Assembly: GCF_006345805.1 (NCBI RefSeq) | Contig: NW_021829081.1 | Location: forward strand, 1-6,978 | Source: Octopus sinensis | Taxonomy: Eukaryota | Reading direction: 5' to 3' | Length of the DNA stretch: 6,978 nucleotides | In this document: positions 3,366-6,978 of the stretch, piece by piece | Layout: the number at the start of each line of letters is the position of its first letter | Numbering within the stretch: position 1 is the stretch's first letter | Notes under the pieces: model-generated | Database searches by the model: none | What the model was told of the DNA's origin: nothing | Seen by the model: the letters and a program-made list of their open reading frames with translations, nothing else | Made by a program: the position numbers and the translations under genes

Positions 3366-3525
3366 TGTCGCTACGTTCTCAGTTCAAATTCCACCAAGGT
3401 TGACTTTGCCTTTCATTTTTTCCGTGTCGATAAATTGAGTACTAGTGAAACACTGGGGTCGATATAATCGAATAGTCTCCTCCCCACAAATTTCAAGCCT
3501 TGTACCTTTAGTAGAAAGAATTATT
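3366..3525 (+). mobile_element. 5'-truncated tRNA-derived SINE (octopus-type)
   Basis: B-box-like GTTCAAATTC at 3382-3391. Core GACTTTGCCTTTCAT...GATAAATTGAGTAC...CACTGGGGTCGATATAATCGA aligns with the adjacent copy. Preceded by (ATT)n at 3337-3366. Resemblance to octopus SINEs is from recall. Confidence 0.85.
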
Positions 3526-3533
3526 TTAATTCT

Positions 3534-3768
3534 GCGGCGAAATGGCAGGTTCGTTAGCATGCACAACAAAGTGTTTAGCATCATTTCATCCGTGGTTACA
3601 TTCTGAGATCAAATTCTGTTGAAGTCGACTTTGCTTTTCATCAATTGAGGATCGATAGAGTAAGTACCAATTGAACACTGGGGTCGATGTAATCGACTTA
3701 CCCTTTCGCTCGAAATTGCTGGCCTTGTGCCAAAATTTGAAACCATTATTTTATTATTATTATTATTA
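3534..3768 (+). mobile_element. Near full-length tRNA-derived SINE with (ATT)n tail
   Basis: Head GCGGCGAAATGGCAGGTTCGTTAGC (A-box-like at 3543-3553), degenerate B box GATCAAATTC at 3607-3616, core hairpin GTCGAT-GTA-ATCGAC at 3683-3697, 3' end GGCCTTGTGCCAAAATTTGAAACC plus (ATT)n. Confidence 0.88.
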
Positions 3769-4354: not shown

Positions 4355-4710
4355 TATATAAGTAGACCAGAGACGGAACATAGAATTGACCTGTTGCTCT
4401 ATTCAAATCCACTACAATTGTTTCGACTCTTTCTGCATCTATATACCAGAAATGAGATGTACGAGAGTGTTGCATCACAGGTGTAGATTGCGACTTCTTA
4501 AGGGTCTTTCAATCAAGTAGTTCGCTCTTTCTTCTCTTCATTTCACGCGTTTAAAAGTTACCTGAGGTGGCCTGAACTTGTAATACGTCAAGATTGATTG
4601 TATAGCATCGCATGTGTGAGATACAGGTGAAGGATGAGACGAAACAATTGTAGTGGATTTGAATAAACTCTTCCGTGCATATCATTTTCTGTTTCAGATC
4701 TATTTATACA
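4355..4710. repeat. Long imperfect inverted repeat (arms 4355-4460 and 4605-4710) with a perfect 26-bp core; probable relic of hammerhead-bearing retroelement termini
   Basis: TATTCAAATCCACTACAATTGTTTCG (4400-4425) is the exact reverse complement of 4640-4665. The ungapped alignment extends both ways (hand count 74/106). Confidence 0.85.
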
Positions 4711-5817: not shown

Positions 5818-5965
5818 CATATATATATATATATAATATACACTTGTGTATGTATGTATATTTGCATGCTGTATCATATTCGTGTGTATGCTTGTGTGCA
5901 CTTATGCATATATTTATGTATGTATATTAGTATGTATGTATTTGTGTGTGTCTGTACACATAAAT
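5818..5965. repeat. (TA)n/(TATG)n microsatellite
   Basis: Directly visible. Confidence 0.88.
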
Positions 5966-5997
5966 ACTTACCCACCTGTATCTATTTTTTTATGTTT

Positions 5998-6200
5998 TTC
6001 TTGTTTCACTCATTGGATTGCGGCCATCCTGGGGCACCGTCTTAAAAGCATTAGTCGAATATATCGACTCAAGAACTTAGGTTTTCAAAGCCTGACAATT
6101 ATTTTATCGTTATCTCTTTTTCAACCACTAGGTTATTAGGAGGAAAACATAACAACACCGCTTGTTAAGCGGTGGAGGACAAAGCAAACACAGAGAAACA
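5998..6200 (-). mobile_element. 3' half of a second, diverged octopus-type SINE family in antisense orientation
   Basis: Reverse complement of 6051-6070 (GAGTCGATATATTCGACTAA) matches the core GGGTCGATGTAATCGACTTA at 3681-3700. CTTGTTTCACTCATTGGATTGCGGCCATCCTGGGGCACCG resembles a very common octopus repeat end (recall). Confidence 0.75.

Positions 6201-6367: not shown

Positions 6368-6401
<34 letters not shown>
6204..6401. repeat. (CATA)n/(TA)n low-complexity tract ending in pure (TA)15 at 6371-6400
   Basis: Directly visible. Confidence 0.9.
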
Positions 6402-6405
<4 letters not shown>

Positions 6406-6978
6406 AATAATGAAGGGTGAAATTAATTAATTTGGATAATATCAATTACACCAAGTAGTCTTCGGCATGTAAAAGCCTCATTCGAGGAAAATTTAAGTAA
6501 TACTAAGCAATAAAGGGTTTAGCAACGAATTGCCTTCAATACCGAATTTAGAAATAGCAGTCAAAGAGTTATAGCTATTTCTTCTACTAAAAGGGAGATC
6601 TCAGTAAAAACAGCAATTGGAAGGCAGACAAAACAGGTAAGAGAGAATGAATTGACGGCAATCTATCATACAATTTTAATTATCTACGGACGTACGTTTC
6701 GAAATCAAGTTTTTAGGAAAGCATAAGAATTAAATATTAAATAATTCTATCTTACCAAAAACTTCTTTTCTCTTCAGCGTAGAATACTATAATCATAAAT
6801 GATTATATATTGAATTTTGAGATACTAGAAGGCACCAACTCAACTCAGTATCAGAGCGAGCTAGAACCCGCAACTAGTATCACCAAATTCAATGCGTGAA
6901 TGAAAAGATTGTGTCACCAGCCCCTTCCCCACCCGCGTGTAGCCAAAACAAGATGCTGTGGTCATCTACTGAGATAAA
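6402..6978 (-). mobile_element. Hammerhead-containing retroelement terminus (Penelope-like pLTR or retrozyme-like); probably continues beyond the window end
   Basis: Abrupt switch from (TA)n to complex sequence at 6402, an intact hammerhead, many hairpins, and no ORF in the track. Minimal type I hammerheads are an established feature of Penelope-like elements and retrozymes. No RT or GIY-YIG sequence is visible here. Confidence 0.65.
6683..6783 (-). ncRNA. Type I hammerhead ribozyme (minimal stem III, extended stem II)
   Basis: Minus strand reads UCUACG-CUGAAGA-[G...70-nt hairpin...C]-GAAA-C-GUAC-GUC^-CGUAGA. All core nucleotides are present, stem I is a perfect 6 bp, the G10.1-C11.1 pair is present, and loop 3 is palindromic. 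Predicted cleavage between + coordinates 6689 and 6688. Confidence 0.92.

Follow-up and report, generated by a model that had tools for sequence, protein, structure and literature searches.

The window is a 6,978-nt stretch of Octopus sinensis DNA, an entire contig from a genome of 2.72 Gb, and on its minus strand lies a type I hammerhead whose stem II is 70 nt long. The motif sits in a non-coding, 593-nt unit arranged head to tail, and we judge it quite likely that the ribozyme cuts as a dimer and that this unit, likely a non-LTR retrozyme, depends on Penelope-like elements (PLEs), whose enzymes would insert copies of it at (TA)n sites. The element is likely of a known kind, a retrozyme that is a non-autonomous PLE, with a long stem II that takes it below the Rfam cut-off. 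The long stem is of modest interest on its own; it is the insertion footprints that make the mobilisation question testable. The movement of animal retrozymes has so far been proposed, and this family offers footprints against which the proposal can be checked, namely two exact reverse transcriptase (RT) start sites, a target and homogeneous arrays. The features are as follows, with the strands of stem I, the two core segments and the GUC triplet read directly from the sequence.

6683..6783, minus strand: type I hammerhead motif, predicted to cleave 3' of C6689
6783-6778 and 6688-6683, minus strand: stem I strands, UCUACG and CGUAGA
6777-6771, minus strand: core CUGAAGA
6700-6697, minus strand: core GAAA
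6696-6691, minus strand: stem III, C-GUAC-G, 2 bp and palindromic
6691-6689, minus strand: GUC triplet
6701..6770, minus strand: stem II, 70 nt, with 4 bp, an A.A/G.G internal loop, an interrupted hairpin and a length-variable tip
6690..6697, minus strand: self-complementary ACGUACGU, predicted to pair between the two units of a tandem dimer as an 8-bp helix III
6399..6978, minus strand: retrozyme unit, 580 of 593 nt, its 5' side cut by the contig end
6500..6545, minus strand: first GGU...ACCCU hairpin and first fixed 3' end (about 194 nt past the cleavage site; window position 6500)
6399..6455, minus strand: second GGU...ACCCU hairpin and second fixed 3' end (about 297-304 nt past the cleavage site)
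6399-6499, minus strand: PLE-like tail
6371..6401, no strand assigned: (TA)n microsatellite target, adjoining the 3' end

Elsewhere in the window, a 60-nt inverted repeat (4400-4459 and 4606-4665, 82% complementary, 146 nt apart) is possibly a small DNA element, and a short, non-repetitive ATG frame on the plus strand (1822-2028), with a donor-like site near 2090, is possibly an exon or gene remnant. Dispersed repeat fragments at 3366-3480, 3530-3750 and 5908-6180, which have matches in other loci, we take to be SINE-like.

The hammerhead and its long stem II

The sequence-only reading had named every element of the motif (stem I, core, GUC triplet, a stem II of 70 nt and a stem III of 2 bp with a palindromic sequence), and all were recovered base for base on the minus strand; they make up a type I hammerhead motif, with a CUGANGA, GAAA and NUH core, three helices and ends that open in stem I. 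A strict descriptor that allows for a long stem II (stem I of 6 bp, the core, four base pairs at the foot of stem II and an insert of 18-85 nt) matches the window once and does not match any of 1000 dinucleotide-resampled windows, whereas a short-stem hammerhead pattern does not catch the motif and returns a single chance-level site at 1846-1909. The predicted pairing probability is 0.64-0.98 for stem I and 0.94-0.98 for the basal four pairs of stem II, and the fold of the region has a z-score of -2.36. Stem II comprises 24 bp in total in the minimum-free-energy (MFE) fold. Its length and base stand as first described, but its distal register is ambiguous, the MFE, centroid and alignment folds disagreeing; the internal loop given as AG/GA is present but opposes A.A and G.G, with no tandem G.A pair. 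That the motif is real and under selection seems to us practically certain.

Would standard models have missed it? At the curated threshold the expectation that they would holds true. The Rfam model Hammerhead_1 (RF00163) shares with the motif the core, the 6-bp stem I and the short palindromic helix III, and it matches exactly 6683-6783 when the scan covers 261 nt, at 20.9 bits against a gathering score of 34 bits; the shortfall comes from a stretch of 66 nt to which the model allots 10. The site is not among the 140 matches from an Rfam scan of the whole window, and a genome search with RF00163, in which 74 candidates were scored, returned seven short-stem hammerheads and none from the window motif's family. 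Thousands of hammerheads in one genome can fall beneath a curated Rfam threshold.

Related hammerheads in the genome form a series in stem II length. Among 139 distinct sequences, assigned to groups by diagnostic motifs of our own choosing, stem II measures 65-72 nt in group A (that of the window, with 70 nt the commonest length), 69-76 nt in B, 59-61 nt in C (plus two deletion variants of 40-41 nt), 57-60 nt in D, 61-62 nt in E and 51-56 nt in F (one of 38 nt), and 24-31 nt (one of 38 nt) in the short-stem sister group S. Family S has 3,446 pattern matches in the genome, forms a tandem unit of 540-560 nt and has its 3' module in common with the long-stem retrozyme. Duplications of 7 nt lengthen the tip of stem II as one passes from C through A to B. 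The tree of 14 sequences is unrooted and so does not tell gain of stem II length from loss. This natural series (about 25, 55, 60, 70 and 76 nt) lets the effect of stem II length on cleavage be asked.

Comparison across copies supports the base of the hammerhead and not its tip. In 12 sequences from the six families A-F, 97.2% of 144 cells are paired, against 19-42% in slid-register controls, and 7 of the 12 pairs show two-sided change, stem I and the base of stem II having compensatory changes between families; independent events are nonetheless few, because these changes mostly trace a single split, F versus A-E. The distal part of stem II fared otherwise: in an alignment fold of 13 A-E sequences a distal helix of 6 bp is all that is recovered of stem II, and no pair of it changes on both sides, though single representatives do fold there as a hairpin (z -1.8 to -4.6). 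The core, stem I and palindrome are retained across families only 54-70% alike. An A.A opposition occupies the fifth stem II position in all seven groups (20/21 in A, 11/12 in B, 3/4 in C, 4/4 in D, 7/7 in E, 19/26 in F and 62/65 in S), and a U.U comes next after the 6-bp stem I. We read the conserved part of stem II as the 4 bp and the purine-rich proximal internal loop, which by analogy likely serves, instead of an apical loop 2, to dock on stem I. Since family S has the same proximal loop on a short stem II, the long tip is probably a tolerated, length-variable appendage rather than a needed one. We also considered, and rejected, an intron inside stem II, given a donor-like GGUAAG in families A-E; F lacks this motif, an acceptor AG is missing from the stem in the window's family, and no joint that skips stem II appears in the contigs of four runs, which can show presence, not absence.

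The tandem unit and its insertion ends

The sequence-only reading had placed the ribozyme in a cephalopod retroelement family. Membership of a young, high-copy family is borne out, and the element can be placed more narrowly, as a tandem retrozyme that is non-coding and whose insertions bear PLE footprints. Across the genome a core-(50-80 nt)-core pattern matches 1,955 times, against once for the reversed control, and a 151-nt query gave 876 first-look candidates, of which the 40 scored are 98-100% identical. The 593-nt unit has a GC content of 34% and a longest ATG frame of 36 aa, folds with a z-score of -6.6 against shuffles and is 67% paired when folded as a circle; tandem units that each hold a type I hammerhead, are non-coding, have GC under 45% and are highly self-paired are the mark of non-LTR retrozymes. 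The unit has no RT or GIY-YIG open reading frame, which an autonomous PLE would require. In the window a single unit is visible, ending at the second fixed 3' end beside the (TA)n run, and the 5' arm of its first hairpin is about 3 nt shorter than in locus L005. In L005 itself the left flank (1-127) resembles, by eye, a LINE-like stretch of the right flank (2772-2898) turned round.

Arrays reach 15 units, with most sampled insertions at 1-4. Two loci hold very long arrays: G000:C1:70560472-70568941, with 15 direct units, and G000 C1:95522395-95534962, with two long arms in inverted orientation. The median number of substitutions is 0 between units of one array (35 pairs) and 6 between family-A arrays (75 pairs). 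The near-identity within arrays fits rolling-circle copying of one template, and it may alternatively come from DNA-level amplification or a homogeneous multimeric source. In three runs that we guess to be RNA, contigs span each of the 30 bins of the unit as well as the unit junction; contigs of a presumed DNA run do likewise, so these contigs say nothing on expression or circles.

Of 62 3' ends at 60 loci, where a few ends may be double-counted through overlap, 55 lie in one of two clusters, either 188-198 or 289-304 nt past the cleavage site, and TA follows in 58 of the 62. Each 3' end lies 14-15 nt past a GGU...ACCCU hairpin, and both hairpins are recovered in an alignment fold of 14 sequences. 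Nearly every inverted insertion (14/15) combines one short and one long 3' end, and the 27 5' ends at these loci are scattered. Two 3' ends with a tail between them, inverted 5'-truncated arms and a microsatellite target are together what PLE mobilisation leaves behind: Frangieh et al. tied the PLE tail to two internal RT start sites (PMC11167929), and Craig et al. described inverted, microsatellite-targeted PLE structures (bioRxiv 2021.04.23.441226). Because the (TA)n targets, the two fixed 3' ends and the mixed-end inversions match this tail pattern, we hold it likely, and with considerable confidence, that PLE enzymes mobilise the retrozyme. Many short inverted insertions of family F (L199-L228) consist of the two-hairpin 3' module alone, the hammerhead being absent.

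At the 5' side, three apparent ends at the cleavage site were seen among the 60 loci, one of them a BLAST boundary artefact, and genome-wide there is no enrichment there, with 2 matches against 5 at one control position. The missing pile-up speaks against cleaved linear monomers as templates; the 5'-end distribution does not separate circles from uncleaved multimers. Insertions repeatedly span the cleavage site.

Which element supplies the enzymes? The genome does contain TA-flanked elements whose open frames, 775-781 aa long, combine RT and GIY-YIG. None of the 58 PLE loci screened, out of 5,029 first-look candidates, proved to be an autonomous element that shares retrozyme sequence. Against these 58 loci, blastn and a profile of the conserved 3' module gave no hits but nested retrozyme insertions, in L076 and L083; two adjacent endonuclease fragments turned out to be separate insertions; and the search for more distant relatives reached only the non-coding families E, F and S. 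Among the PLEs themselves, one family (L091:674-4374 and L094) has a 479-aa upstream frame, with no Pfam match, that overlaps the 781-aa RT-GIY-YIG frame, as would a frameshift-linked two-ORF layout. Hammerhead-like motifs lie downstream of PLE frames at L068, L077, L081, L082, L083 and L096, where UUGAUAA replaces CUGANGA, and at L097, with the variant core CCGAAGA.

Predicted dimer folding and a proposed route of cleavage and mobilisation

The idea that the palindromic stem III acts through a dimer finds support in secondary-structure prediction. The monomeric stem III has a predicted pairing probability of 0.04, and the ACGUACGU self-duplex is put at -9.8 kcal/mol against +2.4 kcal/mol for the monomer hairpin. 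All six natural tandem dimers of the long-stem families are predicted to fold as double hammerheads, with probabilities of 0.95-0.96 for the inter-unit helix III and 0.96-0.97 for the swapped stem I, whereas in all four S dimers the inter-unit helix III is predicted and the swapped stem I is not (P 0.00-0.17). The palindrome of family F differs (ACGCGU in 21 of 26) and cannot close stem III as a monomer because the loop would be 2 nt. At the level of the family the long-stem hammerhead is probably active as a dimer; the window contig ends after one unit, so the window copy's own partner is out of view.

From these elements we can outline how the element might move. A tandem array would be transcribed through, and neighbouring units n and n+1 are predicted to exchange stem I strands while their palindromes pair as the 8-bp helix III. 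Cleavage after GUC would free 593-nt monomers, which a host ligase may circularise, as in known retrozymes. Because helix III is predicted not to form in it, a lone circle should resist re-cutting. With a cut (TA)n site as its primer, the reverse transcriptase of a PLE could begin at either of the two sites 14-15 nt past a GGU...ACCCU hairpin, then circle the template and leave a homogeneous multimer, in many cases one that has an inverted arm. We lean towards mobilisation through a circle. More tentatively, and at rather less than even chances, everything could hold jointly: a type I hammerhead that works only as a dimer, a new docking class in which the A.A loop inside stem II may face the U.U internal loop of stem I, a stem II tip that may accept extra sequence, a natural 593-nt circular RNA, and rolling-circle copying by a PLE RT that may begin at two hairpin-defined sites. 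If this dimer-only circular reading were true, the insertion scars would be direct genomic evidence on how animal retrozymes mobilise.

How far could the hammerhead be a bystander? The element might derive from PLEs and be non-autonomous, with a hammerhead that cleaves weakly or is not needed and with uncleaved multimeric transcripts that serve as templates, no circle being made. The lack of 5'-end enrichment at the cleavage site and the insertions that cross it point this way, as do two reports, that insertion of an Anolis PLE in vitro did not need hammerhead cleavage (PMC11167929) and that in Xenopus one of nine predicted retrozyme dimers was cleaved in vitro, the other eight remaining uncleaved (bioRxiv 10.64898/2026.07.22.740005). 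Retention of core, stem I and palindrome in families so dissimilar argues against it, as do the 15-unit arrays, uncommon as these are among the insertions sampled, and we regard it as unlikely. We give very little weight to the proposal that the long stem II stabilises a hammerhead active as a monomer, for which a dimer would be unnecessary: stems I and II do form well in the monomer prediction, and most invertebrate retrozyme hammerheads are reported to cleave efficiently with no dimer required (PMC7229834), but the monomeric helix III is predicted to be unstable, and the 2-nt loop of family F could not close at all.

Slighter still is the chance that the copies are solo terminal-repeat fragments of an unfound autonomous PLE, or a satellite spread by unequal crossing-over. 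The screen for such an element covered a small part of the candidate loci, and DNA-level amplification also yields homogeneous arrays; against this stand the head-to-tail units without an open reading frame, the dispersed insertions with precise 3' ends and inverted arms, and the nearby PLE protein hits, which lie past separate TA runs where viewed. Mobilisation of a dimer-cleaving retrozyme by PLE enzymes remains our preferred reading.

Relation to known hammerheads, retrozymes and Penelope-like elements

Most type I hammerheads have a helix II of 4-5 bp, and viral ones described as long have 6-8 bp (PMC13725137). In the literature that we searched, neither an octopus retrozyme nor a stem II as long as this in a type I hammerhead is described, though repeat databases or supplements may hold the family; the giant squid genome paper gives 235 Hammerhead_1 matches, with no analysis alongside them in the part of the paper available to us (PMC6962438). 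A close parallel is the CChMVd (-) hammerhead of Dufour et al. 2009 (PMC2632901), which likewise has an extended helix II and an internal loop that replaces apical loop 2 and docks on domain I. It is, however, a viroid hammerhead that has an apical loop 1, whereas stem I of the window motif is open, so any docking would bring two internal loops together.

Corals, mussels and amphibians are known to carry non-LTR retrozymes, and PLEs have been proposed to drive them (PMC7229834); a 2026 preprint on 35 mostly vertebrate genomes argues that retrozymes are non-autonomous PLE sequences, adding co-occurrence and terminal-repeat homology to the case (bioRxiv 10.64898/2026.07.22.740005). As described in these two sources, animal retrozymes share with the octopus element non-coding, low-GC, highly self-paired tandem units, one type I hammerhead per unit and proposed mobilisation by PLEs. 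The octopus unit is 593 nt, against 170-400 nt in Cervera and de la Pena 2020 and 51-972 bp in Li, Clavereau, Pollet 2026; it further differs in its 70-nt stem II and in insertion ends that display the PLE tail pattern, and it is known from genome sequence.

Endonuclease-containing (EN+) PLEs (PMC4209133; Craig et al. 2021; PMC11167929) resemble the octopus retrozyme in a hammerhead with a palindromic helix III, in inverted 5'-truncated arms, in a tail between two 3' ends and in microsatellite targets. By contrast, the retrozyme has no RT or GIY-YIG frame, its tail is about 105 nt rather than 30-40, and its 70-nt stem II stands against a helix II of 6-8 bp in the minimal hammerheads of PLEs (PMC4209133).
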